Shown here one piece after another: positions 1 through 14,968 of a stretch of 16,806 nt of DNA (position 1 is its first letter; each line of letters begins with the position of its first letter). Position numbers and translations under genes: made by a program. This DNA comes from Alphaproteobacteria bacterium (lineage in GTDB: Bacteria; Pseudomonadota; Alphaproteobacteria; UBA6615). The stretch is from NCBI GenBank assembly GCA_965261975.1, contig CBDHEC010000054.1, positions 1-16,806 of the forward strand, given 5' to 3'. The notes beneath the pieces are model-generated. The model was not told the origin of the DNA, did no database searches, and was given only the letters and a program-made list of their open reading frames with translations.

Positions 1-660
1 CAGGAGCTTCTTGGACATGCGCAGGGAATGACCCGGGTTGGCGGCGATCTTGCCCGCCAGAATATGCGCTTCGTCCATCAGGCTCTCATGGGGCACCACC
101 TGGGAGACCAGCCCGCATTCGAGCGCTTCTTCGGCACCGATCATGTCGCCGGTGAAGGTCATCTCGGCGGCCTTGGACATGCCCACCAGCTTGGGCAGCA
201 GGAACGCGCCGCCGTCGCCGGAGATGATGCCCAGCTTGGCGAAGCTCTCGGCAAAGCGGGCTTTCTCGGAAGCGATGCGGATGTCGCACATGCAGGCCAG
301 GTCGCAGCCCGCGCCCACGGCAGCACCATTCACCGCGGCGATGGTCGGCACCTCGATGTTGTAGAGGGTGAGCGGGATGTTGTGGATATCGCGCTTGTAG
401 TTGTTGCGGATCTGGTAGGGCCCGCCTTCCGACAGGCCCTTGCGGTCGCGCATGTCCTTCACGTTGCCGCCGGCGGAAAAGGCGCTGCCCGCGCCGGTGA
501 GGATCACGCATTTCACGCCGTCGTCGCGGCTGATCCGGTCCGTGGCGTCCAGGAAGGCTTCATACTGGCTCTCGCCCGATAGCGGGTTGCGCGCATCAGG
601 CTGGTTCATCGTCAGGGTGACGACCGCGCCGTCCTGTTCGTAGATCAGAAAATCGCTCAT
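1..660 (-). CDS. Enoyl-CoA hydratase/crotonase family protein (3' end runs off the window)
   Basis: Missing from the ORF track; translated by hand from ATG 660: MSDFLIYEQDGAVVTLTMNQPDARNPLSG...VILTGAGSAFSAGGNVKDM...PTIAAVNGAAVGAGCDLACMCDIRIASEKARFAESFAKLGIISGDGGAFLLPKLVG..., open to position 1. Crotonase motifs FSAGGN and AAVNG-A-GAG; SD AAGGAG upstream. Confidence 0.95.
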   Translation of the reverse strand, partial: MSDFLIYEQDGAVVTLTMNQPDARNPLSGESQYEAFLDATDRISRDDGVKCVILTGAGSAFSAGGNVKDMRDRKGLSEGGPYQIRNNYKRDIHNIPLTLYNIEVPTIAAVNGAAVGAGCDLACMCDIRIASEKARFAESFAKLGIISGDGGAFLLPKLVGMSKAAEMTFTGDMIGAEEALECGLVSQVVPHESLMDEAHILAGKIAANPGHSLRMSKKLL

Positions 661-675
661 CTTGCGCTCCTTCGT

Positions 676-749
676 TAGCCTCACCCTGCGACAGGCTCAG
701 GGTGAGGCTATTTTTAACCCCTCATGCTGAGCCTGTCGAAGCATGAGGG
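676..749. repeat. Pair of inverted REP-like palindromes (BIME-like doublet)
   Basis: Hairpin 1: TAGCCTCACCCTG (676-688) / CAGGGTGAGGCTA (698-710), perfect 13 bp. Hairpin 2: CCCTCATGCT (719-728) / AGCATGAGGG (740-749), perfect 10 bp. The two units are near reverse complements of each other (CGACAGGCTCAG vs CTGAGCCTGTCG). Confidence 0.85.
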
Positions 750-770
750 CCGGGAGCGGTGAGGGAGTGG

Positions 771-1556
771 TCAGTCGTAAGCGGCGCCCGGGTCGTCGAC
801 GAGGCTTTTTCCACCCTCGGGCACATAGAGCGCCTCGACGCGCAGGCCCAAATCGAGGACGCGAATGGCCTCGATGTTTTCGTCGAGCTCACGGTCCGAC
901 GGCGGTTCGCGGACGATGCGGTCGAGTGCGGAGCGCCGATACAGGTAGACAGGAATGTGGGTATACACACCGTCCGACCCGAGCCGACCGGTGTCGCGCG
1001 AGAATTGCTCGATCGTTCCGACCTTGGCTTCCGGCATCACGTAGACCTTGCGGTTTTCGTTCCATTCGACCTTGACCTTCGGTGCGTCATCTCCGGCATC
1101 GTCGGTGAGCGGCCCGACGAGGGTTGCCATCGCCACGTCGCTCGACGCCAGCGGATACATCAGCGCACGCAAGTAGCGCACATCGATGTCTGCGAAGTGC
1201 TCCGGCATGTGGATGATCAGGTCGTGATTGCAGTGCCGATCGAACCGCGTGACCGTGTGGGCCACCCGCGCGAGTCCGGAGGGCATCTTGTAATTATGCG
1301 TGGGCGGAATCTCGCTCAAATCCGTCCGCACGGTGTAGGCGCCGGCCTCGCGGGCGGCGGCTTCCGAGGCATCGTCATGACAGTCGACAATCGCGCAGCC
1401 GATATCGGCCGCCTCCGCGCGGCGCACGGCCGTGGCGATGTTCGAGTGGTCGGAGGTGATACTGCCGCGCGCGTTTGCCTTGCGCGCGGCAGTGTCGATC
1501 CTCGACGAAACCACAACTAGTGGGTTCCGTTCCATACGGCGGGGTTCTTCCGACAC
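771..1556 (-). CDS. Divergent KdsB-like (CMP-Kdo synthetase / cytidylyltransferase fold) protein with degenerate catalytic motifs
   Basis: Collinear with KdsB over its length: NPLVVVSSR (IIPAR), RRAEAADIG, PSGLARV (SGTxR), MATL, FSR, HIPVYLYRR (HIGIYAYR), PPSDRELDENIEAIRVLDLGLRV (SPLExxExLEQLRxL), VDD (VDT). GTG 1556 directly abuts the upstream stop; alternative ATG at 1535 (MERNPLVVV). Confidence 0.8.
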   Translation of the reverse strand: MSEEPRRMERNPLVVVSSRIDTAARKANARGSITSDHSNIATAVRRAEAADIGCAIVDCHDDASEAAAREAGAYTVRTDLSEIPPTHNYKMPSGLARVAHTVTRFDRHCNHDLIIHMPEHFADIDVRYLRALMYPLASSDVAMATLVGPLTDDAGDDAPKVKVEWNENRKVYVMPEAKVGTIEQFSRDTGRLGSDGVYTHIPVYLYRRSALDRIVREPPSDRELDENIEAIRVLDLGLRVEALYVPEGGKSLVDDPGAAYD

Positions 1557-2903
1557 CTATTTGTGGGTCGGATAACCCGCGACCGACGGATGATGGAAGT
1601 CGCCGACACGGTAGTTGCCGACCGCTTCTTCCATGTGCTCCATCTTCGTGAAGATGATGGGGCCATCCGGGCCGACGAGCACATTCTCTTCCAGACGACA
1701 GGTCTGTGGGAGGCCCGGGTGGCCGGCAAAGGTTTCGATGGCGAAGTACATGTTCTCCTTGATCTCCGCCGGATACTTCAGCGAGTAGGCGCGGCTCATC
1801 CACATGCCCTCGTAGAGGGTGATGCCGATCGAGTGCGCGAACTGCTGGAGGGTCACGGTCCCGTACTTGTCATCGTCATACTCGGGGAACTTCGAGACCA
1901 CATCGGCCGTCGTGTTGCCCGGCTTCAGGTTCTCGAGGCCCGCATACAGGGAGTCGTAGGTCTCCCGATACAGGTCGATTTCCTGCTGGGTCATCGGCGC
2001 GGCGCACTTGAACGTGCGGACGAAGTCGACATAGTAGCCGCCCGGTCCAACCGCGTTGATGTCAACGATCATGAGGTCGCCCTGCTGGACGATCTTGTCG
2101 GTCGCCCAACGGCGATACGGGCTGGTGTTACCACCCGATGCGACGATGATGTCGTAGATGATCTCGCAGCCGCGATCGAGCATGAACTTGTGGACTTCCG
2201 CCTCGATCTGACGCTCGGTCACACCCGGACGCAGCCACTCATGCTTGATGTGCCACATGGCTGCATCGCCGATGGCGGCGGACATCTTGATCTGCTCGAT
2301 CTCGTCGACCGTCTTCACGACGCGCGCGCGTGACATGGCCGGCCAGCCGTTGACGATGCGCAGGCCCGCCTTCTCGAAGGCGTGCAGGATCGGGAAGTCG
2401 AGGTTGTCGACGCCGATCTTTTCCTTCTCGACGCCGTGCTCCTTGAGCACTTCCATCACCGAGGCGACCATCTTGTCGGCCATCTCGCTGACCGCGCCCT
2501 CGGCCCACTGCCAGGTCATGGCCGGGCGAATCCGGTCCTTCATCCACGGCAGGTCGAGCATGGCGTTGCGCATGTCCGAACCGGCGGTCTCGAAGAGATA
2601 CGGCTCGCCGTTGCGCGGGATCACCGCGTAGCGGATGTTGATGTTGTATTTCCAGTTACCCTGGTAGGACCCGGTGAGATAGCGGATGTTCGCGCCAGCG
2701 AACACGACCATTGCGCCCAGATCGTCGGCTTCCATCTCCGCGCGCGCGCGTGCGAGACGCTCCTGGCGCATGCGCTCGTGATCGACACGATACTGCCAGT
2801 CGGTACCGGTGCCGCTGAAGAGGCGCCGCGGGTTGTTGTGGTGGGCTTCCTGGATGAAACTCGTATCGAGATCATAGCCGCTATAGTCTTTGTTGAACGA
2901 CAT
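1557..2903 (-). CDS. M24 family (creatinase N-domain plus pita-bread domain) metallopeptidase-like enzyme, DddP-related
   Basis: 448 aa; RLARARAEM..NIRYLTG N-domain, ARVVKTVDEIE linker, LRPGVTE, metal ligands D (VDINAVG), D (YYVDFVRT), H (FAHSIG), E (FAIET), E (RLEENVLV). SD GAGGAG upstream. Confidence 0.9.
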   Translation of the reverse strand: MSFNKDYSGYDLDTSFIQEAHHNNPRRLFSGTGTDWQYRVDHERMRQERLARARAEMEADDLGAMVVFAGANIRYLTGSYQGNWKYNINIRYAVIPRNGEPYLFETAGSDMRNAMLDLPWMKDRIRPAMTWQWAEGAVSEMADKMVASVMEVLKEHGVEKEKIGVDNLDFPILHAFEKAGLRIVNGWPAMSRARVVKTVDEIEQIKMSAAIGDAAMWHIKHEWLRPGVTERQIEAEVHKFMLDRGCEIIYDIIVASGGNTSPYRRWATDKIVQQGDLMIVDINAVGPGGYYVDFVRTFKCAAPMTQQEIDLYRETYDSLYAGLENLKPGNTTADVVSKFPEYDDDKYGTVTLQQFAHSIGITLYEGMWMSRAYSLKYPAEIKENMYFAIETFAGHPGLPQTCRLEENVLVGPDGPIIFTKMEHMEEAVGNYRVGDFHHPSVAGYPTHK

Positions 2904-2996
2904 TTTGTTGGTTTCTCCTCGTCAGTTTTATGTCTGAAAAATCGTGTGGGGTGCGGGCGGCCTTATGATGCCGTCCGTGTCTTTCGTGATTTGGGG

Positions 2997-3497
2997 CTAG
3001 TTGTGCATGGTCTCCGGCATGGCCTGCGGGCTGTCGACGAGACACCGACGAAGCATGTCGTCGATGTGGTCCCAGTCGGCATCTGCGTTGGTGAACCGGA
3101 TTTGTTGAATTCGATCGCCGAAGACGGGGTGCCAGTCGCGGTTCGTGATTGTTTCGGCAAGCGATCGGGGCGTGGCGTGGGCGTCGGTGCGGCTCGCCAT
3201 CCAATAGCCCGCGGGTCGATAGGCGGCGACGCCTTCGACGATGCGAAGCCGGAAGCAGATATCGGGCTGAGAATCGATCCAGAACACCCCTTCGGCGGTA
3301 AGATCGTTCGGCCACATTTGCCCGATCAGGCAGAGCGCGTTGAGGGCGGCGAATGGCCGGCGATCCTCGAACAGGCGCCCATGGTCGGACATGGTTGGTG
3401 CGGTGGGAGATGTGATTGCGCCGACATAGAGCTCGCCCGGTGCTTCGGGCGATACGTCGTCGTTCGGCATCAGCAGTACTGCCATCGATCTTCCCAT
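2997..3497 (-). CDS. Hypothetical protein (about 157-166 aa)
   Basis: 3' part of ORF 2997..3857. It fills the gap between the M24 gene and the AT-rich intergenic region, is co-directional with M24 and has protein-like composition (ELYVGAIT..FAALNALCLIGQMWP..FWID..FRLRIVEG..YWM..DWHPVFG). Start uncertain (ATG 3497, 3485 or 3470). No recognised domain. Confidence 0.6.
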   Translation of the reverse strand: MGRSMAVLLMPNDDVSPEAPGELYVGAITSPTAPTMSDHGRLFEDRRPFAALNALCLIGQMWPNDLTAEGVFWIDSQPDICFRLRIVEGVAAYRPAGYWMASRTDAHATPRSLAETITNRDWHPVFGDRIQQIRFTNADADWDHIDDMLRRCLVDSPQAMPETMHN

Positions 3498-3675
3498 GTG
3501 GTCGCCGCACAGCCCGGCGAACCTGCGGTTCAAGGTAACGGTATAACAAAACGGGTTAATATATAACGTTTCGCTCTCAAGCAACCCGTCATCAATATCG
3601 TGCGCGGCACAAGACTTTGCGATTTGGTAAGCAAAACTGCGGTGTTTCGCTAAACTGACGTTTGGAGCGTCTCCC
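3498..3675. promoter_or_regulatory. Divergent AT-rich promoter region with imperfect palindrome GTTAATATATAAC
   Basis: Lies between divergent gene sets and is markedly AT-rich at 3535-3660. Palindrome at 3555-3567; GTTTCGCT occurs at 3568-3575 and 3644-3651; SD GGAG before ATG 3676. Confidence 0.55.
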
Positions 3676-4833
3676 ATGCGATCATTCGCCTTCGAACCCT
3701 GCGAACTGCCCCCCGTTGCCGGGACGCTGCGGGCCGAGGTGCGCGCGTTCCTGGAGGCCGAGGCCGCGGATATCCTGGTGCCGGCGCGGGCCCGATCCTG
3801 GGTCGGGTTCGATGCGGAATTCTCGCGCAAACTGGGTGAGCGGGGCTGGCTGGGCATGACCTGGCCCGCGCCCTATGGTCCGGGCCGCAGCGCGCTGGAG
3901 CGTTACGTCGTCATCGAGGAGCTGTTGGCCGCCGGCGCGCCCGTGGCCGCCCACTGGATCGCCGAACGCCAGAGCGGGCCGCTGATCCTGCGGTTCGGAA
4001 CCGACGAACAACGCGAAATGCTGCTGCCGGGGATTGCCGCCGGCGAGACCTATTTCTGCATCGGCATGAGCGAACCGGATTCCGGTTCGGACCTCGCCTC
4101 GATCCGCTCGAAGGCGGAACCAGCGGAGGTAAATGGCGAGAAGGGTTGGGTCGTCAATGGCCGCAAGGTCTGGACCACCTACGCCCAGCATTCCCACTAC
4201 ATGATTGCGCTGCTGCGCACGGGCGAGGCCGGCGAGAGCCGCCACGGCGGAACGACGCAGTTCGTCATCGACCTTTCGGCACCCGGCGTGACCGTGCAGC
4301 CGATCCGCAACATGATCGGCGATGAGGAGTTCAACGAGGTCACCTTCGACGATGTATTCGTGCCCGCGGGCATGCTGGTGGGCGAAGAGGGGAATGGCTG
4401 GCGCCAGGTGACGGCGGAACTCGCCTTCGAACGCAGCGGGCCGGATCGTTTCCTGAGCGCCTTCGCGCTGCTCAAGGCGTTGGTGCATGTGGCCGGGGAG
4501 AACCCCTCCGATATGGCCGCCGCCGCGATTGGTCGGTTGCACGCCCATCTCGGCACGCTGCGGGGCATGTCCCTGTCGGTGGCCGCCCAGCTCGACGCGG
4601 GCGCGGAACCGGCACTGGAGGCGGCCTTCGTGAAGGATCTCGGGGTGATGTTCGAGCAATCCATTCCCGAGATCGCCCATCAGGTGATCGGTGCGTCGCC
4701 GCGGATCGACCATGGCGACGATTTCGAGCAGGCACTCGCCTACGTGCAGCAGGCTTGCGTGTCGTTTTCCTTGCGTGGCGGCACCACCGAGATCATGCGG
4801 GGCGTCATCGCCCGAGGGCTGGGGCTGCGATGA
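3676..4833 (+). CDS. Acyl-CoA dehydrogenase (catalytic-type subunit)
   Basis: 385 aa; GWLGMTWP..YG, FCIGMSEPDSGSDLAS, WVVNGRKVWTT, FNEVTFDDVFVP, GEEGNGW, LAFERSG (Glu), RGGTTEIMR. Confidence 0.95.
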   Translation: MRSFAFEPCELPPVAGTLRAEVRAFLEAEAADILVPARARSWVGFDAEFSRKLGERGWLGMTWPAPYGPGRSALERYVVIEELLAAGAPVAAHWIAERQSGPLILRFGTDEQREMLLPGIAAGETYFCIGMSEPDSGSDLASIRSKAEPAEVNGEKGWVVNGRKVWTTYAQHSHYMIALLRTGEAGESRHGGTTQFVIDLSAPGVTVQPIRNMIGDEEFNEVTFDDVFVPAGMLVGEEGNGWRQVTAELAFERSGPDRFLSAFALLKALVHVAGENPSDMAAAAIGRLHAHLGTLRGMSLSVAAQLDAGAEPALEAAFVKDLGVMFEQSIPEIAHQVIGASPRIDHGDDFEQALAYVQQACVSFSLRGGTTEIMRGVIARGLGLR

Positions 4834-5807
4834 GCGAGGAACGCACCCTGATCGCCGAGACCTGCGACCGCCTGTTTGCCGCGCACCTCGATGAAGATGT
4901 GTTTCGTGCGGCGGAGGATGGAGAGTTTCCCCACGCCCTGTGGGACGCGATCACCGAAAACGGCCTCGACCGGATTCTGATGCCGGAAGCGCAAGGCGGC
5001 AGTGGGCTGGGTTGGGAAGATGCCCATGTGGTGCTGTTTGCCGCCGGGGCGCATGCTGCCCCGGTGCCGCTGGCCGAGGCGATCGCCGCGGGCTGGCTGA
5101 TGCGCCAGGACGGCGTACCCGCTGTGCCCGATGGGATCGTCACCCTGGCCGACCCCGAGATGTTGCGGGTGCCCTGGGGTCGGGATGCGAGCCACTTGCT
5201 GATTTCAGGCGCGGATAATGTGCTGCATTGTTTAAGTTTGGGGGGCGCCGCCATCACACGCGACCGGAACATCGGCCGCGACCCGCGTGACCGCGTAATC
5301 GTGGAAGGCGTGATGACGGAGTATCGCGGTGTGAACGAGATTCAGGCGGCCGGTGCGCTCGTGCGGTCGTGCCAGATGGCGGGCGCGGTCTCGGCCGTGC
5401 TCGACCTGTGCGTCGCCTACACCAATGAACGGGTACAGTTTGGCCGGCCGATCGGGCGGTTCCAGGCGATCCAGCAGCAGCTGGCGGTGATGGCCGCCGA
5501 GGCGGCAGCAGCGGGCGTGGCGGCGCGTGAGGCCTGCCGGATGGTCGATGCCGGGGGCAGTATCATCGCGGCGGCCGCCACGGCGAAGATTCGCACGGGC
5601 GAGGCGGCGGGCAAGGCCGCCAACATCGCTCACCAGGTGCATGGCGCAATCGGATTCACCGACGAGTACCGTCTGCATCACCTGACACGGCGGCTATGGG
5701 CCTGGCGGTCCGAATTTGGTGCGGAGGGCGCCTGGGCAGGTCTGCTCGGCCGCTTGGTGGCCGCGCGGGGCGCGGACAATCTCTGGCCGGATTTGACGGA
5801 CGGCTGA
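4830..5807 (+). CDS. Acyl-CoA dehydrogenase, short partner subunit
   Basis: Start MSEERTLIAET at ATG 4830, overlapping the upstream TGA (ATGA); 325 aa. PEAQGGSGL, YTNERVQFGRPIGRFQAIQQQLA, AHQVHGAIGFTDEY; middle domain shortened and lacks SEP-GSD. Confidence 0.92.
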   Translation: MSEERTLIAETCDRLFAAHLDEDVFRAAEDGEFPHALWDAITENGLDRILMPEAQGGSGLGWEDAHVVLFAAGAHAAPVPLAEAIAAGWLMRQDGVPAVPDGIVTLADPEMLRVPWGRDASHLLISGADNVLHCLSLGGAAITRDRNIGRDPRDRVIVEGVMTEYRGVNEIQAAGALVRSCQMAGAVSAVLDLCVAYTNERVQFGRPIGRFQAIQQQLAVMAAEAAAAGVAAREACRMVDAGGSIIAAAATAKIRTGEAAGKAANIAHQVHGAIGFTDEYRLHHLTRRLWAWRSEFGAEGAWAGLLGRLVAARGADNLWPDLTDG

Positions 5808-5851
5808 CAGCCGTTACAAAGTCGGTGCTACACAGGTCCCGGGGATTTCCT

Positions 5852-6688
5852 ATGCAGTTCGTGAGTTATATCGGCGCCGACGGTGCGACATGGGGGCTCG
5901 TTGAAGGCGACGGCGTGATTGATCTCGGCGTGCGGGGCCCACATGTTAGCCTCAAGGCGGCGATCGCTGCCGGGGGTTTGATGGAGATCGGCGCGGCGAC
6001 CCAGGGAGAAAGCCCCGACGCGGCCCTGGCCGACATCGCCTATCTGCCGACCATCCCCGACCCGACCCACATGTTTTGCGCGGGCAAGAACTACAAGGAT
6101 CATGTGGAGGAGATGGGCTTCGAGATGCCCGACAATCTCTCGCTGTTCCTCAAGGCCAACTCGACGCTGGTACCCCATGGCGGTGCGATGATCCGGCCCC
6201 GTGTGTCCGAGTGTCTGGATTTCGAGGGCGAGATCTGCGCCGTGATCGGCCGCGAGACGCGCCATGTGTCCGAGGCCGAGGCGCTGGATTGCATCGCCGG
6301 CTACACGATCATGGTCGATGGCTCCGTGCGCGACATCCAGAAGCATTCGGTGACGGCGGGGAAAAACTTCGTGGGCACCGGGCCGTTGGGCCCGGTGATG
6401 ACCACGGCAGACGAGATTCCCGACCCGTCCCGGCTCCACGTCACGACCCGGCTTAACGGCGAGGTGGTTCAGGATTGCGGCGCGGATATGCTGATTTTCG
6501 ATATTCCGTATATCATCGCCTATGTGTCCCGGATCACGCCGCTGCAGCCCGGCGATGTGATCGCGACGGGATCGCCCGCCGGGTCCGGCGCGGGACGCGA
6601 ACCGCTGCTCTGGATGAAGGGTGGCGACAAATTAGAGGTCGAGGTGCCGAAAATCGGGACGCTGGCGGTCGATATCGTCGATGAATAG
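5852..6688 (+). CDS. Fumarylacetoacetate hydrolase (FAH) family protein, paralog 1
   Basis: Start MQFVSY at 5852 (278 aa), chosen by collinearity with the next gene. CAGKNYKDH, DFEGE, DGSVRD, GKNF, GPLGP, PGDVIATGSP. Confidence 0.93.
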   Translation: MQFVSYIGADGATWGLVEGDGVIDLGVRGPHVSLKAAIAAGGLMEIGAATQGESPDAALADIAYLPTIPDPTHMFCAGKNYKDHVEEMGFEMPDNLSLFLKANSTLVPHGGAMIRPRVSECLDFEGEICAVIGRETRHVSEAEALDCIAGYTIMVDGSVRDIQKHSVTAGKNFVGTGPLGPVMTTADEIPDPSRLHVTTRLNGEVVQDCGADMLIFDIPYIIAYVSRITPLQPGDVIATGSPAGSGAGREPLLWMKGGDKLEVEVPKIGTLAVDIVDE

Positions 6689-6709
6689 TCGGGACGGGGG
6701 ACGAAACGC

Positions 6710-7549
6710 ATGAAGTTCATCAGTTACAAGCTGGGCGATGCCGCCACATGGGGGCTTGTCCGCCAGGACGGGGTCGTCGACCTGGGTGCGCGCGGGCCGC
6801 ACAAGACCCTGCGCGCGGCCATCGCGGCGGGAGGTCTCATGTCACTCGGCGAAGCCGGGATGTCGGGCGACCCCGACACCGTGCTGCCCGACGTGACCTT
6901 CCTGCCGGTGATCACCGACCCGGACAAGATTTTCTGCGCCGGCCTCAACTACAAGGACCATGTCACGGAGACCAACAACACCCTGCCGGGCGAGCTGCAG
7001 CTGTTCATGCGCTCGACCAACACGCTCGTCGGCCATTGCGCCGAGATGGAGCGGCCGAAGGTCTCGGACAATTACGATTTCGAGGGCGAGCTCACGGCGA
7101 TCATCGGCAAGGGGGGACGCCATATCGGCGAAGCCGACGCGCTCGATCATGTCGCCGGCTACACCATCTTCATCGATGGTAGCGTGCGCGACTATCAGAA
7201 GCACTCGGTGACGGCGGGCAAGAATTTCTACAAGTCCGGCCCGCTCGGGCCCTGGATGGTGAGCGCGGACGAGATTCCCGACCCGGCGTCGATGGAGCTA
7301 ACCACCCGGCTTAATGGCGAGGTGGTACAGCATTCCACGACCGACATGTTGCTTTTCGACCTGCCCTATATCATTTCCTACATCTCGCGGTTGACGCCGC
7401 TGGAGCCGGGCGACGTGATCGCGACGGGGACGCCGAGCGGCGTTGGCGCGCGGCGCAATCCGCCGCTATGGATGAAGGCGGGCGACCGGATCGAGGTCGA
7501 GATTTCAAAGATCGGCACCCTGTGGGCCGATGTCGTTGACGAAGTTTAG
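6710..7549 (+). CDS. Fumarylacetoacetate hydrolase (FAH) family protein, paralog 2
   Basis: 279 aa; CAGLNYKDH, DFEGEL, DGSVRD, GKNF, GPLGPW, PGDVIATGTPSGVG. Confidence 0.95.
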   Translation: MKFISYKLGDAATWGLVRQDGVVDLGARGPHKTLRAAIAAGGLMSLGEAGMSGDPDTVLPDVTFLPVITDPDKIFCAGLNYKDHVTETNNTLPGELQLFMRSTNTLVGHCAEMERPKVSDNYDFEGELTAIIGKGGRHIGEADALDHVAGYTIFIDGSVRDYQKHSVTAGKNFYKSGPLGPWMVSADEIPDPASMELTTRLNGEVVQHSTTDMLLFDLPYIISYISRLTPLEPGDVIATGTPSGVGARRNPPLWMKAGDRIEVEISKIGTLWADVVDEV

Positions 7550-7567
7550 AGGCGGGAGGAACCAGCC

Positions 7568-8467
7568 ATGACGATCACGCGTGTCGAGAAACTGATCTAC
7601 GGCGTCGAGGATATGGACACGGGCGCCAATTACTATCGCGACTGGGGCGTGGACGAGGTCGAGAGCGGCCCCGAATGCAGGGTTTTCAAGACCCGCACGA
7701 ACCAGTTCATCGAGCTGCGCCGGGCCGATGATCCGTCCCTGCCGGGCTCACCCGATCCCGCAAAATCGACCCTGCGCCGTGCGATCTGGGGTGTGCGTGA
7801 TGCCGATGGGCTCAAGGAACTGGGCGAGGACCTCGCACGTGATCGTGACGTGGTCGACGAAGGCGGCACGATCTGTTTCGCCGACGAGAGCGGCAATGGG
7901 CTGGGCCTGGTGGTCTCATCACCGACCCAGACCGACGTGGAGATCATCCCCCATAACGTCAACGATAATGCGCCGCGGATGAACGCGGTGATCTCGCCGG
8001 CGGCCCAGGCGAACCCGATTCGTATCGGCCATGTGGTCTACGGAATCGAGATGTCGGATCGGGAGAAAGCCGTTGATTTTTACCTGAACCGCCTGCGCTT
8101 CCGCATGTCGGACAGCACCAAGACCGGCGGCGATTTCATGCGCTGCGAGGGTGGACATGATCATCACAACCTGTTCCTGATCAGCCGTGCCGACCGCAAC
8201 TTCTTCGATCACGCCTCCTTCGAGGTCGAGAATTTCGACATGGTGATGATGGGCGGCAAGTTCATGAAGGATAAGGGCTGGGACCCGGACACGACCCCGG
8301 GCCGGCATATCCTGGGCTCGAACTTCTTCTGGTACTTCAACAACCCGGCCGGCGGGCGGACCGAGTATTTCGCCGATATGGACCGCATGGATGATAGCTG
8401 GGAGCCGCGCATCTGGGACGAGAGCCCGGGTTTTGCCCTGTGGACGGTCGACGACGCGACGCTTTAG
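7568..8467 (+). CDS. VOC/glyoxalase superfamily extradiol-type ring-cleavage dioxygenase
   Basis: 299 aa, two-domain VOC. Candidate His-His-Glu triad IGHVV / FDHASFEV / RTEYF; HHNLFL; PGRHILGSNFFWYFNNPAGG signature. SD GGAGG. Confidence 0.85.
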   Translation: MTITRVEKLIYGVEDMDTGANYYRDWGVDEVESGPECRVFKTRTNQFIELRRADDPSLPGSPDPAKSTLRRAIWGVRDADGLKELGEDLARDRDVVDEGGTICFADESGNGLGLVVSSPTQTDVEIIPHNVNDNAPRMNAVISPAAQANPIRIGHVVYGIEMSDREKAVDFYLNRLRFRMSDSTKTGGDFMRCEGGHDHHNLFLISRADRNFFDHASFEVENFDMVMMGGKFMKDKGWDPDTTPGRHILGSNFFWYFNNPAGGRTEYFADMDRMDDSWEPRIWDESPGFALWTVDDATL

Positions 8468-8470
8468 CGA

Positions 8471-9598
8471 TTACGCGTTCAGAACCGCCAGCATCGCGTC
8501 CAGGTGGGCCGCGCCGAAGGCCTTGGTGCGGTCCGGCGACCAGCCGAAGGTCGCGTCGGGCCGGTCGGCATTGTCCTTGAAGGGCATCTCCAGGGTCAGC
8601 GCCAGGCAGCCGAATTCCTCGGCCACCCAGTTGGAACAGAGCGTCATGTTGCCCTTGCCCGGCTTGGCGTCGGGATAGCCGTATTTGGTCTGGAAGTCGG
8701 GGCTGGCGGTCAGTAACGCCCCGGAGAAGATCTCCTGCAGGGCCTTCTGGCGATCGCTGAGCGAGGGGATCCCCATCATTCCGGCGAGGAAGTTGTAGGG
8801 CAGGGCCTCGTCGCCATGAACGTCGAGGCAGAAATCCACACCCGTTTCCTGCATCCGCTGGCGGACCAGGAACACTTCCGGGCTGCGATCCATGGCCGGT
8901 TCCGACCATTCCCGGTTGAGATTGGCCCCCGCCGCGTTGGTGCGCAGATGGCCGCGGCGTGATCCATCCGGGTTCATGTTGGGGACGATGTGGAAGACCG
9001 CGCGGTCGAGCAACGCCTGCGCCGTGCGATCTGAGGCATCGAGAAGCCGCGCGAGGAAACCCTCCATCCACCATTCGGCCATGCTCTCACCCGGGTGCTG
9101 GCGGGCGATGGCCCAGAAATTCTGCTTGTCGTCGCCCAGCTCGCCGATCGTCAGCAGGTCCATGGCCTGGCCGTCGAGGGTCTCGCCCAGGACGCTCAGC
9201 GAGACCCGGTCATCGCGCTGCGCATTGGCGATCAAATCCGCATGGCGTTCCATGGAATAGGGCGCGAAATAGGCGTACCAGACGCTGTCCGTCGCCGGTG
9301 TGTGTTCGATGGTCAGCACGCCCTTCTCGTAGCTCGACGGCACCCTTAACCATGTCTCCCGGTCGCTCGAGGCGACGGCCTGGTATCCCTCCCAGCCCTT
9401 GGGGTAGGCGGCGCCGGCGGCGTTCATGATCTTCATGGAGACGGGCGTGTCCTTCGCGCCGGTCAGGCGGAAGTGAAACCACATGTAGAAGTCGGAATTA
9501 TTGTCCTTGGCGATCTCCAGCCGGATGTCCCCGGGATCCGAGGCGTCCAGGCAGACGATATTGCCGCTGTCGAAGTTGCTGGAGAGGTGGAGGGGCAT
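8471..9598 (-). CDS. M14-type cytosolic zinc carboxypeptidase (Nna1/CCP-like)
   Basis: 375 aa; N-domain FDSGNI..WFHFRL..YFAPYS; catalytic RQHPGE, MNPDGS..GHLRTNA..NLNR, DVHGDE, TLEMPFKD. Confidence 0.93.
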   Translation of the reverse strand: MPLHLSSNFDSGNIVCLDASDPGDIRLEIAKDNNSDFYMWFHFRLTGAKDTPVSMKIMNAAGAAYPKGWEGYQAVASSDRETWLRVPSSYEKGVLTIEHTPATDSVWYAYFAPYSMERHADLIANAQRDDRVSLSVLGETLDGQAMDLLTIGELGDDKQNFWAIARQHPGESMAEWWMEGFLARLLDASDRTAQALLDRAVFHIVPNMNPDGSRRGHLRTNAAGANLNREWSEPAMDRSPEVFLVRQRMQETGVDFCLDVHGDEALPYNFLAGMMGIPSLSDRQKALQEIFSGALLTASPDFQTKYGYPDAKPGKGNMTLCSNWVAEEFGCLALTLEMPFKDNADRPDATFGWSPDRTKAFGAAHLDAMLAVLNA

Positions 9599-9607
9599 GG
9601 AAAACCT

Positions 9608-10654
9608 CTAGGGAATGATCCGGTTGTCGCGCAGTTTCTGCAGTTGGCGGGTGATGGTCGCCGGGGTGTCGCGGAAGCCGGTCCAGCCCGCCCCGACGAT
9701 CTTCGTGAGGCTGGAGACCTGGTCCATGTCGTTGCCCAGCGCCATATCGAGATAGGCCCAGTTGACCAGCTGGTCCAGTGCGAAGGGCTGAAGATCGTGC
9801 CGCGCCGCGAGTTCGGTCCAGACCGGGCCCTTGGGGCCCATGGTGTCGGCGATCGCGATGGGGGCGGGGCCGCCGACGTCCATCTCGAAGAAGTCCGCGA
9901 TGCGCGGCCAGGCCTCGTGCCAGCGGAACAGGTCGCCATTGGTGATGTTGAAGGCGTTGTTCGCGGCCGCCGGCGTCGTCGCGGCCCAGAGCATGGCCTC
10001 GGCCAGCAAATCCGCGTCGATCAGCTGATACAGGCGGTCAAAGAAGCCCCGGTTTCCCGGCCAGCGGAGCGGCTGACCCTCGGCCTTCGACAGGGCGGCG
10101 TAACATGCGATCCCCGTCAGCAGGTTCATGGCGCTGCCGGTCGAGAACCCCCACACGCCGTGGGGCCGCAGGGCGGACCATGACCAGCCGGCGCCCTTGC
10201 GCCGTTCGACCAGCCAGTCCTGCTGGGCGTGATAGAAATGCTCGACCGCCGGGCGCGGGTCGTCCTCGCGCGCCGGGGTCTTGTAGGCGCCCAGGAAGGT
10301 CCCGTACCACTTGGCCCCGTGCATCAGCTGGACATGCGCCAGGCCCGGCGCTGACGCTTCCACGGCGTCCATCAGGTTGGCGAGCATCGCGACATTCACC
10401 GGGATCTCGGCCGCCACCGTCTCCTGCTGGCTGTAGGCGGTATAGAAGACATGGGTGATGTCGGCGTGGTCCGCGAGCTTGGCCCGGCAGTCCGCCGGGT
10501 CATTCAGATCGGCCGAGATGAACGCCGCCCGGGTCTCGAAATCGGGCGCGCGGCGCGAGATCGCGACGATCTCCCAGTCGCGCTGGTCTTCGAGATGGGT
10601 GAGCAGGGCCCGGCCGGTCACGCCCAGCGCGCCCGCAATCAGCGCCTTCGCCAT
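9608..10654 (-). CDS. Atypical SDR of the progesterone 5-beta-reductase/VEP1 (PRISE) family
   Basis: Start MAKALIAGALGVTG at 10654 with SD GGAGG; 348 aa. ISRR, THVFYTAY, GAKWYG, EDDPR, FYHAQQD, WSWSALRP, AFNITNGDLFRW. Confidence 0.9.
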   Translation of the reverse strand: MAKALIAGALGVTGRALLTHLEDQRDWEIVAISRRAPDFETRAAFISADLNDPADCRAKLADHADITHVFYTAYSQQETVAAEIPVNVAMLANLMDAVEASAPGLAHVQLMHGAKWYGTFLGAYKTPAREDDPRPAVEHFYHAQQDWLVERRKGAGWSWSALRPHGVWGFSTGSAMNLLTGIACYAALSKAEGQPLRWPGNRGFFDRLYQLIDADLLAEAMLWAATTPAAANNAFNITNGDLFRWHEAWPRIADFFEMDVGGPAPIAIADTMGPKGPVWTELAARHDLQPFALDQLVNWAYLDMALGNDMDQVSSLTKIVGAGWTGFRDTPATITRQLQKLRDNRIIP

Positions 10655-10721
10655 GATGTGTGTCCCTCCCGGTGACGATCGCCACCGCCGCGCGATACTA
10701 TCAGTCGGGGGAGACGAAACC

Positions 10722-11123
10722 ATGCTCGAAAAATTCGCCGATATGACGCTCCAGTATCAAGGGGAGACCATCTGGGTGCCGGAGGCGAAGTTCGGCGACT
10801 ATATCGGCAGCGGGACCGGCGAGATCACCGGAGACGTGCTGTCCGGGGACGTGAAATGGAGCCTGTTCGAGAACGAGGCGCCCGATGTGTGTGATTTCAC
10901 CCTCACGGGAACCATTCACGACGCCGAGGGCGTCGAGCACGGTTTCGAGATACTGGGCTACTCCGCGCATGAACCCGATACGCGCAGCTGGCGGTTGTCG
11001 GCCGGCATCCGGTTTACCGCGTGCCCACCGGATGCCGCCTATCCGGCGGTCGGTGTTGTCACGGGGGCCTTCGTGACGGCGAGCCGGAGCCACCATTACG
11101 AATTGTTCCGGAATCGGCCGTAA
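10722..11123 (+). CDS. Small hypothetical beta-barrel protein, possibly DUF3237-like
   Basis: ATG 10722 with SD GGAG; 133 aa rich in alternating strands. GTGEITGDVLSGDVKW resembles the G-x-G..l-G-v motif of DUF3237-type barrels, and there is a later IRF-T element. Family tentative. Confidence 0.65.
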   Translation: MLEKFADMTLQYQGETIWVPEAKFGDYIGSGTGEITGDVLSGDVKWSLFENEAPDVCDFTLTGTIHDAEGVEHGFEILGYSAHEPDTRSWRLSAGIRFTACPPDAAYPAVGVVTGAFVTASRSHHYELFRNRP

Positions 11124-11168
11124 GCCCGGAAAAGCGGCGTTTCAGGCAATAGATATTCGCTTTACATA

Positions 11169-11186
11169 TTATTGATATATCAGTAA
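11169..11186. promoter_or_regulatory. Palindromic operator upstream of gntR (TTATTGATATATCAGTAA)
   Basis: Perfect core TGATATATCA at 11173-11182, extending to 18 bp with one mismatch, about 40 bp upstream of the gntR start. Confidence 0.7.
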
Positions 11187-11222
11187 GATCCGTGAAGATA
11201 GCAATCACCGGAGCGTCATGCC

Positions 11223-11885
11223 GTGGGCAAGAATCCGAATATCAGCTTGACCGACCAGGCCTATGGCCGCATCGAGGAATTGATCGTCACCCTGCAGCTG
11301 CCCCCCGGGGGCGCCGTTTCGGAAGGGGAGCTCTGCAACCAGACCGGTTTCGGCCGCACGCCGGTGCGCGAGGCCCTGATGCGCCTGTCCCAGCAGCGGC
11401 TGATCAACATCCTGCCCCGCCGGGGCATGTTCGTGACCGATATCAACGTCGAGACCCAGCTCTACCTGCTGGAGCTGCGCCGGGAAGTCGAGCCCCTGAT
11501 GGCCGGCCTCGCCGCGCGCCGGCGCACCGATGAGGAACGCTATGCCTTCGGCGAGATCGCCAGCGCCATGGAGGCCGCGGCGGCGGACCATGACGAGGAA
11601 GCTTTCCTGGCGTTGGACAAGGCGTTCAACGAGCTGGTCGGGAAGACCTGCCGAAACCCGTTCGCCCAGGCGACCATGGAACAGTGGAACCCGCTGGCGC
11701 GCCGCTTCTGGTACCAGCATCACCAGAAGGTCGGCGACCTGGCGCGCATGGCCGCGCTCCACGCCGATGTGGCCTGGGCGATCGGCGGCGGCGATGCGGA
11801 CGCGGCGGAGGAAGCCTGTGGCCGTCTGATCGCCTACCTGACCGGCTTCACCCGCGCCGCACTCGACGCCGAGCACGGCGAATAG
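11223..11885 (+). CDS. GntR family transcriptional regulator (FCD domain, FadR/VanR type)
   Basis: 220 aa from GTG. wHTH AYGRIEELIVTLQLPPG..SEGEL..GRTPVREALMRL..PRRGMFV; FCD LELRREVE..LAARR..DKAFN..NP..H. Confidence 0.95.
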   Translation: MGKNPNISLTDQAYGRIEELIVTLQLPPGGAVSEGELCNQTGFGRTPVREALMRLSQQRLINILPRRGMFVTDINVETQLYLLELRREVEPLMAGLAARRRTDEERYAFGEIASAMEAAAADHDEEAFLALDKAFNELVGKTCRNPFAQATMEQWNPLARRFWYQHHQKVGDLARMAALHADVAWAIGGGDADAAEEACGRLIAYLTGFTRAALDAEHGE

Positions 11886-11918
11886 GGCCGGGTTTCCGGC
11901 AGTTCATGAGTATTCTAT

Positions 11919-11930
11919 AGATATATCAGT
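11919..11930. promoter_or_regulatory. Second operator copy upstream of the FAD oxidoreductase (AGATATATCAGT)
   Basis: Shares 11 consecutive bases GATATATCAGT with 11174-11184; lies about 27 bp upstream of ATG 11957. Confidence 0.65.
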
Positions 11931-11956
11931 GATACAGAGCGCGGGACGAGGAGAGT

Positions 11957-13576
11957 ATGATGGCAACGAAGGGCGACACCGGACGCAAACTGAAATACTG
12001 GGGCTGGGGCTATGAGGACGCCGGCCTTGACGCGGACCAGACGAAGGCGCTGCTGGCGACCTTCGCCGACGGTTTCGCCATCAACCCCTCCCGCGACGGG
12101 GCCTTTCCGGCCCTCGACGCGATCGAGTTGCCGAAATCACGCCTCGAGGTGCCGTCGAACCTCGCGGACGTCTGCACAAACGACAGGTTCGAACGGGTCT
12201 ATCACGCCTTCGGCCAGTCCCAGCCCGACTCCCTGCGTACCTATGACGGGGATTTCGATCACGCACCCGACATTGTCGCCTTTCCCGAGAACGAAACCCA
12301 GATCGCAGAGATCTACGAATGGGCCGGGAAAACCAACGCGGCCGTCATCCCCTGGGGCGCGGGCTCGTCCGTCGTCGGCGGCGTTACGTCCGACGTGGGG
12401 TCGAAATACAACGGTACTATTTCCGTCGACATGGGCCGCATGAACAAGGTTTTGGAGGTGGACGAGGTGTCCCGGGCTGCGCGCATCCAGGGCGGCGCGC
12501 TGGGGCCCCAGCTCGAGGCCCAGCTCAAGCCGCATGGTTTGACTCTCCGGCATTTCCCCCAATCCTTCGAGCATTCGACCTTCGGCGGCTGGATCGCGAC
12601 GCGCTCCGGCGGCCATTTCGCGACCTTGTATACCCATATCGACGACCTGGTGGAGGCGACGACCACCGTCACCCCCGCCGGCGACATCGTCAGCCGCCGC
12701 CTGCCGGGTTCGGGCGCGGGCCCCAGCCCCGACCGTTTCGTGGCACTCGGCAGCGAGGGCGCGCTGGGCATCATCACCGAGGGCTGGGCCCGCCTGCAGG
12801 GCCGGCCGACCTTCAAGGCCACTGCGGGGTTTCGGTTTACCGACTTCTTCGCCGCCGCCCGCGCCGTGCGCGCCGTCTCCCAGGCCGGGCTGTTCCCGGC
12901 GAACGTGCGCATCGTCGACGGCACGGAGCTGCAGGTGAACGGCGCCGGCGACGGCAGTTTCACCCTGATGGTGGTCTCCTTCGAGAGCGCGGATCACCCG
13001 GTCGACGCGTGGATGGCGCGCGCGGAGGAGTGCTGCCTCGATCACGGCGGCACGGTGGACGTGCCCTGGCGCGACAACCCCGAGGCGCATCTCCAGGGCG
13101 CGGTCGGCGCGTGGCGCACGGCCTTCATCCGCATGCCGTATAACCGCGAGCAACTGACCCCGCGGGGCATCATCTCCGACACCTTCGAGACGGCGATCAC
13201 CTGGGACCGGTTCGAGGCGTTCTACGGCGCCATCAAGGAAGCGACCCAACACGCCATAAGGGACGTGACGGGCCATGACGGGGCGGTGTCCTGCCGCTTC
13301 TCACACGCCTATCCCGACGGCCCCGCACCCTATTTCGCCTTCCACGCGCCGGGCGACCCCGGCGCGATGCTCCAGCAGTGGCAGGAGATCAAGACCCGCG
13401 CGTCCGACGCGCTGATCAAGCATGGCGGCACCATCACCCACCACCACGCCGTGGGGCGCGACCATCAGAAATGGTACGAACAGCAGCGCCCGGCGCTGTT
13501 CGGGGATGTGATCGGGGATGCGAAGAAGCGGCTGGACCCGAAGGGGGTGCTTAATCCTGGGGTGATTGTGGGGTAA
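11957..13576 (+). CDS. FAD-binding oxidoreductase (VAO/PCMH family), alkyl-dihydroxyacetone-phosphate synthase (AgpS)-like
   Basis: 539 aa; YWGWG, PWGAGSSVVGG, RHFPQSFEHSTFGGWIATRSGGHFATLYTHIDD, GSGAGP, GSEGALGIIT, CRFSHAYPDG, GGTITHHHAVGRDH, DPKGVLNPG. SD GAGGAG. Confidence 0.9.
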   Translation: MMATKGDTGRKLKYWGWGYEDAGLDADQTKALLATFADGFAINPSRDGAFPALDAIELPKSRLEVPSNLADVCTNDRFERVYHAFGQSQPDSLRTYDGDFDHAPDIVAFPENETQIAEIYEWAGKTNAAVIPWGAGSSVVGGVTSDVGSKYNGTISVDMGRMNKVLEVDEVSRAARIQGGALGPQLEAQLKPHGLTLRHFPQSFEHSTFGGWIATRSGGHFATLYTHIDDLVEATTTVTPAGDIVSRRLPGSGAGPSPDRFVALGSEGALGIITEGWARLQGRPTFKATAGFRFTDFFAAARAVRAVSQAGLFPANVRIVDGTELQVNGAGDGSFTLMVVSFESADHPVDAWMARAEECCLDHGGTVDVPWRDNPEAHLQGAVGAWRTAFIRMPYNREQLTPRGIISDTFETAITWDRFEAFYGAIKEATQHAIRDVTGHDGAVSCRFSHAYPDGPAPYFAFHAPGDPGAMLQQWQEIKTRASDALIKHGGTITHHHAVGRDHQKWYEQQRPALFGDVIGDAKKRLDPKGVLNPGVIVG

Positions 13577-13606
13577 GGGGGTGCTCGTTAAGTCTACTCG
13601 AACACG

Positions 13607-14095
13607 TTATCGAGTATGAGTGCTTGAGAGCGCATTCATCTCCCACCGTTGGCGACCTGCAGGGTAGGAGCAAAATTTTTCTATTGGAGCCAATCTGGAT
13701 TTACTATTGGGCGCAAACAACGCGTAGTTGCGCAAAGTCTGGATGGAGGCCTCCCGAGATTCGCGTGATGTATCATCGCTATCTTCGGCAGTGTTTTGGC
13801 CATCTTCCACGGGCGGCCGGTCTAGGCTCCAGTGTCCAGTCGCATCGTCGAATTTCGCTTCTAGAGCCTGCAGATTGCCGTAGCTCTTTTTGGTATTGAG
13901 GGGAAACGGTGGTGACGTGAAAGCGAGCTGGACCTTGCCCTTATGTTCATCAAAAGGTTTGCTTTTCAATACCTTCAGGGAATCGCCACAGAAAGCTGAA
14001 CCCAGGTCTGTCGTATAGATAGGCGTTGATGCCCTGCGACCCTGACTGATTGCCTTGGCGATCTCCACGTCGTGTGTCTTTCCCCACGCAGGCAT
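13607..14095 (-). pseudogene. Truncated beta-class N4-cytosine DNA methyltransferase (M.PvuII-like N-terminus) fused to unrelated sequence
   Basis: IYTTDLGSAFCGDSLKVL..KVQLAFTSPPFPLNTKKSYGNLQ matches the M.PvuII-type start with catalytic TSPPF (13904-13918). Similarity stops near 13868; no FxGxG SAM motif. Low GC (28/60 at 13681-13740, 27/60 at 13921-13980). Confidence 0.8.
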
Positions 14096-14248
14096 GATGA
14101 GAGCCTATCTCCTTGAAGTTTCGCCAACCATATCTATCGCGCCATCTGCCGTAAACGCTGATGTCTTGGCATTTGGGCGGGCCTTTTTTGCATCCTTCCG
14201 CCCGTCAATCCGTCGTCAGCACGTTCTTGTAACAGGAGTACGAAACAA

Positions 14249-14647
14249 ATGACCAAACACATCGGCACATGGACCCTCGTCCGCGTCGAAGCCGTCGACG
14301 CCGACGGTGCGCCCGTCTCGCCGCAGCCCTATGGCGACGGGAACTATATCGGCCGGGTGGTGCTCACGGCCGACCGGCTGTCGTCCACCATCACCGACGC
14401 CCGGCCCGTCGTGCCCGCCGGCGAGGTGCGCGAATATTCCTGCTACACCGGTCTCTACACATTCGACGGAAAGACCCTGGTCACCACGGTCGACCAATCC
14501 TCCGACCCGGCGCGGATGGGCACGGAGCAGGTCCGCGACGTGTCGTTCGAGGGCGATCTCATGGTTCTGCGCCCGCCGCTCCAGCCCTATGGCGACCGGC
14601 CCGCCGAGCGGCGCACCCTGTGGTGGCGGAAGATCTCGGACGTTTGA
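14249..14647 (+). CDS. Lipocalin-like domain protein (Lipocalin_5 type)
   Basis: 132 aa; IGTWTLV, PYG..G, YTGLYTFDG, GTEQVR..FEGDLMVL, LWWRK. SD AGGAG; no signal peptide. Confidence 0.85.
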   Translation: MTKHIGTWTLVRVEAVDADGAPVSPQPYGDGNYIGRVVLTADRLSSTITDARPVVPAGEVREYSCYTGLYTFDGKTLVTTVDQSSDPARMGTEQVRDVSFEGDLMVLRPPLQPYGDRPAERRTLWWRKISDV

Positions 14648-14661
14648 GTTGTAGCCGTATC

Positions 14662-14685
14662 GTCATGCCCGGACTTGATCCGGGC
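14662..14685. repeat. Short REP-like palindrome GTCATGCCCGGACTTGATCCGGGC
   Basis: Stem GCCCGGA (14667-14673) / TCCGGGC (14679-14685) preceded by GTCAT; resembles GTCATGCCCGG-type intergenic repeats of Alphaproteobacteria. Confidence 0.6.
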
Positions 14686-14715
14686 GCGTGATTGAAGGCA
14701 CTGGCGCAGGCCCGA

Positions 14716-14848
14716 TCATGCTTCGAGACGCCGCCTTCGGCGGCTCCTCAGCATGAGGAACGAGCGAAGGGGACAGCGCCTCGGCGCGGAAACTACCCAA
14801 ACGCCTCACCCTGAGGAGGCGCGAAGCGCCGTCTCGAAGGGCGAGGCG
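14716..14848. repeat. Inverted pair of long REP-like palindromes (CCTCAnnCTGAGGAG..CGTCTCGAAG type)
   Basis: Unit A 14716-14758 reverse complement CCTCATGCTGAGGAGCCGCCGAAGGCGGCGTCTCGAAGCATGA. Unit B 14804-14846 CCTCACCCTGAGGAGGCGCGAAGCGCCGTCTCGAAGGGCGAGG. Each forms a bulged hairpin. Confidence 0.85.
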
Positions 14849-14968
14849 GAAGCTCCAGCCCCGCGCGTGCCGAATAGCGGCGTCCCGCCCCCGGGGACTC
14901 CCATTTCACACTCCAATACTGCAAAATCCGGCCTTCAGTCCTTCGCGTCACAACCCGCCGGTTTTGCC

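Follow-up and report, generated by a model that had tools for sequence, protein, structure and literature searches.

CMP-Kdo synthetase (KdsB) is an essential and well-studied enzyme of lipopolysaccharide (LPS) biosynthesis and a drug target. The gene described here encodes a distant relative of this enzyme and lies on the minus strand of a 16,806-nucleotide stretch of alphaproteobacterial DNA (GenBank contig CBDHEC010000054.1, positions 1 to 16,806; hereafter the window), directly downstream of a gene for an M24-family metalloenzyme. According to the excerpted text of PMC3149649, the N-terminal domain of KdsB binds CTP and the C-terminal domain binds Kdo and forms the homodimer; in the Aquifex aeolicus enzyme two strictly conserved residues, D95 and D219, hold Mg-A between them, and the β-phosphate is stabilised by K19, likewise conserved. 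For Escherichia coli KdsB, excerpts of PMC12199768 describe hydrogen bonds from Q98 and Y185 to the C5 hydroxyl of Kdo and name D100 as a ligand of the second Mg. The Mg-A ligands D95 and D219 in A. aeolicus numbering correspond to D100 and D235 in E. coli; the numbering of E. coli KdsB 1vh1_A, the reference of the HMMER alignment used below, fits the cited residues.

The product of the window gene is very probably derived from KdsB and no longer a CMP-Kdo synthetase, and in all likelihood the gene is functionally tied to the M24 enzyme, which bears a distinctive C-terminal tail. Catalytic residues of KdsB have been lost, the gene is under purifying selection, the two genes are strictly coupled, and the M24 tail occurs only together with the partner. 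The preferred explanation, to which we give a probability of roughly 0.55, is a KdsB-derived pseudoenzyme that acts as a non-catalytic or repurposed accessory subunit and would bind the M24 enzyme, a physical association suggested by structure prediction. The features concerned are the following.

771–1535, minus strand: KdsB-like gene, 254 aa from the ATG at 1535, stop codon at 773–771; predicted KdsB fold, scores below curated cut-offs
1536–1556, minus strand: 21 nt separating the M24 stop codon from the start of the KdsB-like gene; GGAAG (ribosome-binding-site-like) at 1551–1547
1557–2903, minus strand: M24 metalloenzyme, 448 aa (Pfam PF00557 and PF01321), creatinase/prolidase-type, distantly DddP-like
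1560–1619, minus strand: C-terminal tail of M24, residues 429–448, GNYRVGDFHHPSVAGYPTHK, found only in M24 genes preceding a KdsB-like gene
2997–3857, minus strand: open reading frame (ORF) with a CobW_C domain only (domain ~3039–3371; Pfam PF07683, E 8.5e-5)

Kinship with KdsB and the state of the active site

The original prediction described an intact ORF at 771–1556. The frame is indeed intact on the minus strand, where the longest ORF runs from a GTG at 1556 and encodes 261 aa. Because every homologue opens at MERNPL, the true start is most likely the ATG at 1535–1533, which gives a protein of 254 aa instead. The sequence strings on which the prediction was built (SSRIDTAARKAN, HMPEHFA, FSR, HIPVYLYRR, ELDENIEAIR and VDD) are all present in the translation, as is the insert EIPPTHNYKM ahead of PSG.

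Kinship with KdsB is real, weak in sequence and clear in fold. Pfam returned nothing for the protein except DUF7185 (E 0.17); PF02348, reached at E ≤ 0.01 by 6 of 24 M24-linked members, does not match the window protein even at E ≤ 10. With the NCBIfam model NF003948 it attains 86.8 bits (E 1.2e-24) where 281 are required, and with TIGR00466 it attains 30.1 of the required 155.2. The top sequence match in the PDB, KdsB 8ees_A (E 1.7e-5), extends over residues 93–255 only, the C-terminal half. AlphaFold2 (AF2), supplied with 24 family members, gave a model with a predicted local distance difference test (pLDDT) value of 81.6 and a predicted template modelling (pTM) score of 0.82, in which prediction is poor only for the loop 16–27 (pLDDT < 50) and the last six residues. 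When this model was searched with Foldseek, ranks 1–31 were KdsB chains throughout (best E 1.7e-14, TM-score 0.62–0.78), and other sugar nucleotidyltransferases scored much lower. The predicted fold is the two-domain nucleotidyltransferase fold of KdsB, and the proposed collinearity with KdsB is upheld by the HMMER alignment, with every curated KdsB cut-off missed.

Residues at the active-site columns were counted over 32 M24-linked sequences. In the HMMER alignment P-E-H of the window stands opposite Q98-G99-D100 of 1vh1_A. The D95/D100 column holds H18, D6, K3, G2, S2 and L1, with His in the window; the Q98 column holds P19, Y9, H3 and A1, and Gln in none of the 32. At K19 the residues are R16, P6, K2 and L1, with a gap in 7. 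Asp is absent from the D219 column in all 32, 8 of which end before it; since V-D-D of the window lies opposite V234-D235-T236, the state of D219/D235 in the window protein itself is ambiguous. The N-terminal loop, which reads SSRIDTAARKANARG in the window against PARxxSxRxPxK in KdsB, has been truncated or removed in 7 of the 32 sequences, and the pLDDT below 50 at residues 16–27 makes its alignment uncertain. An eroded CTP/Mg site, as first proposed, is borne out; the loop Lys and the Mg ligand D100 are replaced, as is the Kdo contact Q98.

The companion claim of a largely kept sugar-acid pocket stands in part. The Arg of FSR (26 of 32), the second Tyr of YxYR (Y26, W6) and E..E..R (26–31) are mostly retained, whereas the Q98 contact is lost throughout and Y185 is Tyr in only 18 sequences, the window among them, with His in 8 and Phe in 6. 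Similarly, the C-terminal VD survives only in the window and its closest relative; in most clades the C-terminal Asp motif is absent or lost by truncation. On every count made at the level of sequence the protein appears not to be a working CMP-Kdo synthetase, in agreement with the original prediction.

The cleft positions differ between the M24-linked clades, reading PEH, PDD, YASL, YGHL or HALL. The window's clade appears the least eroded, since it keeps an Asp near D219 and an Arg at the R10 position. In this clade (13 sequences) the cleft is also rich in His and Cys, with IVDCHD, THNYK, FDR(F/H)CNHD and H(M/L)PEH at residues 49–54, 79–83, 98–105 and 109–113 of the 254-residue protein; the last of these, an HxxEH string, is placed by the prediction at the end of a strand and not in a helix. 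The other M24-linked clades lack most of these His and Cys residues, and any metal site would therefore be clade-specific.

A conserved subfamily coupled to a tail-bearing M24 enzyme

A word-indexed search yielded 36 relatives of the KdsB-like protein. When 1.84 billion representatives were searched with a profile, 3930 matched, only 26 of them at E ≤ 1e-30; there is no fused form among the best 150 of the 3930 profile matches (longest 324 aa). A locus scan with one genome per species produced 54 loci. In 31 of them an M24 gene immediately precedes the KdsB-like gene on the same strand, at full length in 30 and truncated by a contig end in one (L010); L031 starts too near a contig end for M24 to be judged. 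Thirteen loci follow argG, and a fourteenth of that clade (L028) begins at a contig end, with argG not visible. Seven lie beside cytochrome c, six of them also beside pheA. The last group and the canonical kdsB genes of the window's genome are:

L032–L035, L037, L038 and L041: loci linked to pheA/cytochrome c
G000:C53:5963–6664 (L001): canonical kdsB gene
G000:C8:135050–135745 (L002): canonical kdsB gene

The 53 usable sequences form one clade apart from 14 canonical KdsB proteins in a quick tree (Shimodaira–Hasegawa-like approximate likelihood ratio test 100), on which the M24-linked label changes twice. M24-linked members have longer stems than the argG- and pheA-linked paralogues and have mostly lost D95 and K19. 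The window protein falls inside the clade and carries its motifs: the NPLxV start, IVD, an HNY(K/R) insert before SG, FDRxxxHD, ALMYxL, the WNxxRxVYV hairpin and PPxxRE.

The ratio of nonsynonymous to synonymous substitutions (dN/dS, Nei–Gojobori method, NG86) is 0.055–0.42 for the KdsB-like gene, with an estimate from 16 of 23 pairs, and 0.005–0.12 for M24, so that the KdsB-like protein evolves several times faster than its neighbour. The family is conserved under purifying selection and not in decay. The search for a canonical kdsB elsewhere in the genome that had been recommended for this locus found two genes that exceed the TIGR00466 cut-off, with scores of 228.6 and 182.8 bits. The neighbour of one is an lpxK-like ORF, identified by eye, and that of the other resembles prephenate dehydratase. 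In five further genomes that carry subfamily members a better-scoring kdsB is likewise present. The copy on contig C53, which adjoins the lpxK-like ORF, has a long branch and unusual composition in the tree; that contig may be foreign, as the estimated contamination of the assembly is 2.81%.

Given two canonical genes, a third copy could be redundant, and one coupled relative (L058) does have an internal stop. These observations would suit a decaying pseudogene or an ordinary second kdsB. Decay was rejected on the dN/dS of 0.055–0.42; frames are intact in 24 aligned members, the family-specific motifs are conserved, all curated KdsB cut-offs are missed, and the catalytic residues are lost. Both readings are effectively excluded, and their probability is negligible.

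In marine Rhodospirillaceae there can be as many as three KdsB-like genes, of which one is near-canonical (139–150 bits). In the other two paralogues IPSQ…P(K/R)(K/R)QL replaces PAR…STRxPxKxL; one follows argG (L019–L029, L057, L059) and the other occupies the classical kdsB-pheA position.

The M24 protein is probably an active enzyme, since all five ligands of the binuclear metal site are kept: D281, D293, H357, E390 and E405, equivalent to D209, D220, H284, E313 and E327 of prolidase 1pv9 and invariant in 23 sequences. Its nearest solved relatives are prolidases and DddP (E ~1e-20), and it scores 112.6 bits with the NCBIfam DddP model, for which the cut-off is 600. Across the coupled loci M24 is 82–97% identical to the window copy (mean column identity 89%) and the KdsB-like protein 33–91% (mean 47%). 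These loci come from Rhodospirillales, Hyphomonadaceae/Caulobacterales, a Bauldia metagenome-assembled genome (MAG), Gammaproteobacteria and one betaproteobacterium. Their wider neighbourhoods differ, and nothing general is shared beyond M24 and the KdsB-like gene, which are joined in 14 loci by the gene for the CobW_C protein. A short-chain dehydrogenase/reductase (SDR) cluster seen in 7 of 24 coupled loci may reflect mere general SDR similarity. In the window the M24 gene ends in TAG at 1559–1557, and a scan found no terminator between it and the KdsB-like gene; the corresponding gaps in relatives, taken from M24 ends and KdsB-like starts, are ~20–120 nt.

A search of the order that started from M24 found the enzyme in 6 of 45 other genomes, with a KdsB-like gene beside it in all six; some of the six probably coincide with genomes already represented by loci L006–L018 and are therefore not independent evidence. 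Within the genus, where many genomes are incomplete MAGs, 5 of 11 others have the module, and there is no M24 orthologue in 400 other sampled genomes of the class. The M24/KdsB-like module behaves as a rare accessory trait, variably present within one genus.

The wider M24 orthologue group comprises 1274 proteins at E ≤ 1e-50, many of them 422-aa forms with 76–77% identity from other phyla. Eighty metagenome loci from soil, sediment and marine samples (L062–L141) encode M24 proteins of 70–78% identity, and the only match in a plasmid collection, from a Haloarcula plasmid (L061, 59% identity), has no KdsB-like neighbour. The 422-aa form aligns gap-free to the window M24 by BLASTP and ends at residue 428. 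Beyond this point the coupled enzymes carry a tail of ~20 residues with the consensus (G/A)xYRxG(D/E/Q)FHH(P/A)xxxGYP.., in which H437-H438 is invariant. The FHH tail is present in 31 of 31 KdsB-linked M24 genes versus 0 of the 80 metagenome loci of the 422-aa type, two sets that derive from different queries, the 80 being the best matches to a tail-less query. The best 120 M24 homologues divide into 27 with the FHH tail, 71 that end within a few residues of HMEEA and 22 of neither kind; 8 of these 22 have variant tails containing HPS(L), as judged by eye. In one locus (L039:6650–8047) the tail ends early (…FHHPSLAR), before GYP.

None of the 80 tail-less loci has a KdsB-like gene in its flanks (tblastn, E ≤ 1e-4). 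The gene after tail-less M24 is a D-2-hydroxyacid dehydrogenase in 29; an SDR is present in 22 and a Zn-dependent alcohol dehydrogenase in 17. HMGL-like, FAH, GlcD-like oxidase and HTH-cupin regulator genes are often found near tail-less M24. To judge from gene content, these neighbours have a flavour of acid metabolism and point to no particular compound.

Upstream of M24, the ORF with the CobW_C domain probably starts later than its full length implies, around Met61, because its 5′ part overlaps a divergent acyl-CoA dehydrogenase gene. No GTPase motif or P-loop is visible in its translation. The gene stands upstream of M24 in 14 coupled loci of Alpha-, Beta- and Gammaproteobacteria versus 0 of the 80 tail-less loci; relatives at L052:5686–6609 and L055:6057–6626 are 35–39% identical over the domain. 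This specificity, the distant likeness of the protein to ZigA, a zinc metallochaperone (43.8 bits with the NCBIfam model against a cut-off of 600), the invariant H437-H438 of the tail and the His/Cys-rich cleft of the window's clade would fit a maturation factor, in which the KdsB-like and CobW_C proteins would jointly help to supply metal to the binuclear centre of M24 or to shield it, with the His-His tail as a handle. However, the CobW_C gene is missing from more than half of the coupled loci, its product lacks a GTPase domain, the His/Cys-rich cleft is limited to one clade, and tail-less M24 orthologues keep the same five ligands with no such helpers. We consider a dedicated maturation factor improbable.

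Predicted complex and the role of the KdsB-like protein

The complex of M24 and the KdsB-like protein was predicted with each protein supplied as an alignment, in three runs and with three controls. The interface score ipSAE has a median of 0.72 (0.73, 0.72 and 0.00), and the best of the three controls reached 0.00; of 157 solved complexes 116 attain that mark, as do 2 of 215 mismatched pairs. The pLDDT of the partner is at least 77. The model supports binding without showing it. Its confident interface comprises residues 1–3, 45, 101–105, 123–132, 161–166 and 202–206 of the KdsB-like protein, spanning the motifs FDRxCNHD, ALMYPLA, the WNxxR hairpin and LDR, and residues 59–61, 162, 183–195, 329–337 and 366–380 of M24. 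Many of the predicted KdsB-like contacts would fall in the C-terminal domain, the Kdo-binding and homodimer domain of KdsB. Interface positions of the KdsB-like protein are more conserved than the others (0.69 vs 0.54; one-sided Mann–Whitney p 0.005, 22 vs 232 positions). A partnership with the adjacent M24 enzyme, one of the roles suggested by the original prediction, appears to be the best-supported reading, given the pair kept in 31 loci, the pair-only tail and a complex prediction above its controls.

Several observations pull the other way. One of the three runs gave 0.00, and the agreement of contacts between runs is at least 0%. M24 modelled alone by AF2 on a 23-row alignment did not fold (pLDDT 42.4). 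None of the 27 interface positions carries a fixed difference between tail-bearing and tail-less M24, compared with 11 of the 392 remaining positions; the modelled contact patch on M24 is not specific to tail-bearing forms, and it may be conserved for another reason, such as self-association of M24. The tail itself lies outside the confident interface, the model neither supports nor excludes its docking into the KdsB-like protein, and the tail contrast depends on the two query sets described above. The coupled copy with an internal stop (L058:4912–5625) also belongs here, as does a KdsB-like gene without M24 (L056:8013–8723) in the same MAG as coupled locus L042. The latter gene sits behind an AhpC/deiodinase-like gene. 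Finally, catalytic-type residues persist: SGxxR is near-invariant (S31, G32 and R32 of 32), 13 of 32 sequences, that of the window among them, have Arg at the R10 position, 6 of 32 keep Asp at D95, and the window's clade has an Asp one or two residues past the D219 column, in a low-confidence tail.

Because of these persisting residues, an enzyme with changed chemistry has to be considered, namely a nucleotidyltransferase or other transferase that would use other residues or another metal and act on an M24 substrate or product, with no stable complex between the two proteins. The nucleotide-side core (NPLxV, IVD, SGxxR) is kept, one clade has its D95 Asp within xPDDMP, the window's clade combines R10 with a conserved loop RG and the cleft motifs DCHD, HNY, CNHD and H-x-P-E-H, and the slot after tail-less M24 is occupied by true enzymes (2-hydroxyacid dehydrogenase, SDR, Zn-dependent alcohol dehydrogenase). 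Yet no candidate catalytic residue is common to all M24-linked clades and the cleft differs from clade to clade; 8 of 32 sequences end before the C-terminal motif and 7 have a shortened or deleted loop, and the protein changes several times faster than M24. Changed chemistry is on balance unlikely.

The C-terminal residues bear on another alternative, a free ligand-binding protein or sensor of a nucleotide or a 2-keto-3-deoxy-type acid, which would work through sequestration, signalling or regulation and would not bind M24 stably. Retention of the FSR Arg (26/32), the YxYR Tyr (26/32) and E..E..R (26–31/32) is in line with this, and the FAH, HMGL-like, SDR and 2-hydroxyacid dehydrogenase genes of tail-less loci fit keto- or hydroxy-acid metabolism. 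Against it, none of the 32 sequences keeps the Q98 contact, the predicted complex outscores its controls, and a tail confined to paired M24 proteins points to a protein–protein relationship. Such a sensor seems quite unlikely.

On the preferred reading of a KdsB-derived accessory subunit, a small subfamily would have split from housekeeping KdsB, keeping the fold and losing the CTP:Kdo cytidylyltransferase function, and the gene would have become fixed directly downstream of a highly conserved M24 gene in one set of lineages. The two proteins would be made together from a single transcript and the KdsB-like protein would bind M24 as an accessory subunit, with the CobW_C-only protein acting alongside in many lineages. 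The partner might, for example, gate or mature the metal site, or sense a nucleotide or acid through the retained SGxxR and C-terminal-domain residues. A more specific form, in which the protein is an obligate non-catalytic subunit of a hetero-oligomeric M24 enzyme of a kind not described before, recognises the …YRxGDFHH…GYP tail and gates or matures the metal site, with the CobW_C protein as a third part in many lineages, is put forward tentatively and is possible at best.

Genomic setting and comparison with known systems

The G+C content of the window is ~60–68%. As the original prediction stated, LPS and capsule genes are absent nearby: none of the 21 scanned window ORFs matches such a family. 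Downstream of the KdsB-like gene, on the minus strand, lies an enoyl-CoA hydratase gene, and the spacer between the two contains a hairpin (680–775, minus strand; −42.9 kcal/mol, z −4.4, 0 of 200 shuffles equally stable), at which a consensus scan found no T-tract terminator. The divergent side of the window contains two acyl-CoA dehydrogenase-like genes, two FAH-family genes and one glyoxalase/dioxygenase-type gene, among others. The cluster at 3676–8467 (plus strand), in which the glyoxalase/dioxygenase-type gene is two-domain, is common to the closest relatives L006, L007 and L009 only and lies outside the conserved module.

No paper on the KdsB-like/M24 pairing or on this M24 group was found in the full-text literature, a search that lay mostly outside subscription journals. 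Fold and ancestry are known, and the module of a CobW_C-only protein, a tail-bearing M24 enzyme and a stripped KdsB copy appears to be undescribed. A conserved KdsB offshoot that has kept the fold and dropped the chemistry illustrates how such an enzyme can be turned to another job. The conservation of M24 (70–78% in metagenomes, 59% on the Haloarcula plasmid) suggests an important, uncharacterised reaction, and the link between the tail and the KdsB-like protein offers a direct experimental handle. Genes annotated as 'CMP-KDO synthetase' in these genomes probably encode something other than that enzyme.

Compared with KdsB/KpsU (EC 2.7.7.38; TIGR00466, PF02348), the window protein shares the predicted fold, collinearity, SGxxR, FSR, H..Y.YR and E..E..R. 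It differs in having P-E-H for Q98-G99-D100, a degenerate PARxxSTRxPxK loop, no conservation of D219/D235, a 9-residue insert (..HNYK.) before SG and a longer WNxxRxVYV hairpin; its gene has no LPS neighbours and shares the genome with canonical kdsB genes at other sites. The argG- and pheA-linked Rhodospirillaceae paralogues belong to the same clade and share the HNY insert, FDRFY(N/T)HD, ALMYxL and WNxxR. Unlike the window protein, they keep D95 (20/20) and K or R at K19 (20/20), the pheA-linked ones keep D219 (6/7), they match PF02348, and they do not lie beside M24.

The M24 enzyme resembles DddP, prolidase and creatinase in its pita-bread domain, creatinase-type N-terminal domain and five metal ligands, and the DddP structures 4s01 and 4rzy align to it over residues 42–415; the relationship is distant (E ~1e-20), and the unique C-terminal tail sets its subgroup apart. 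The upstream protein shares the C-terminal CobW_C domain with COG0523/CobW-type GTPases such as ZigA and differs from them in lacking a visible GTPase domain or P-loop.

Catalysis-dead regulators with a nucleotidyltransferase fold include the large subunit of plant ADP-glucose pyrophosphorylase and the nucleotidyltransferase-like domains of eIF2B gamma and epsilon. By analogy, these retain a sugar-nucleotidyltransferase fold as a regulatory or scaffolding partner, as is proposed for the window protein. Their partners are their own paralogues or a translation factor, whereas the partner proposed here is an unrelated M24 enzyme; if the more specific, tail-recognising form of the reading is true, a pita-bread enzyme would have acquired a sugar-nucleotidyltransferase fold as its regulatory partner.

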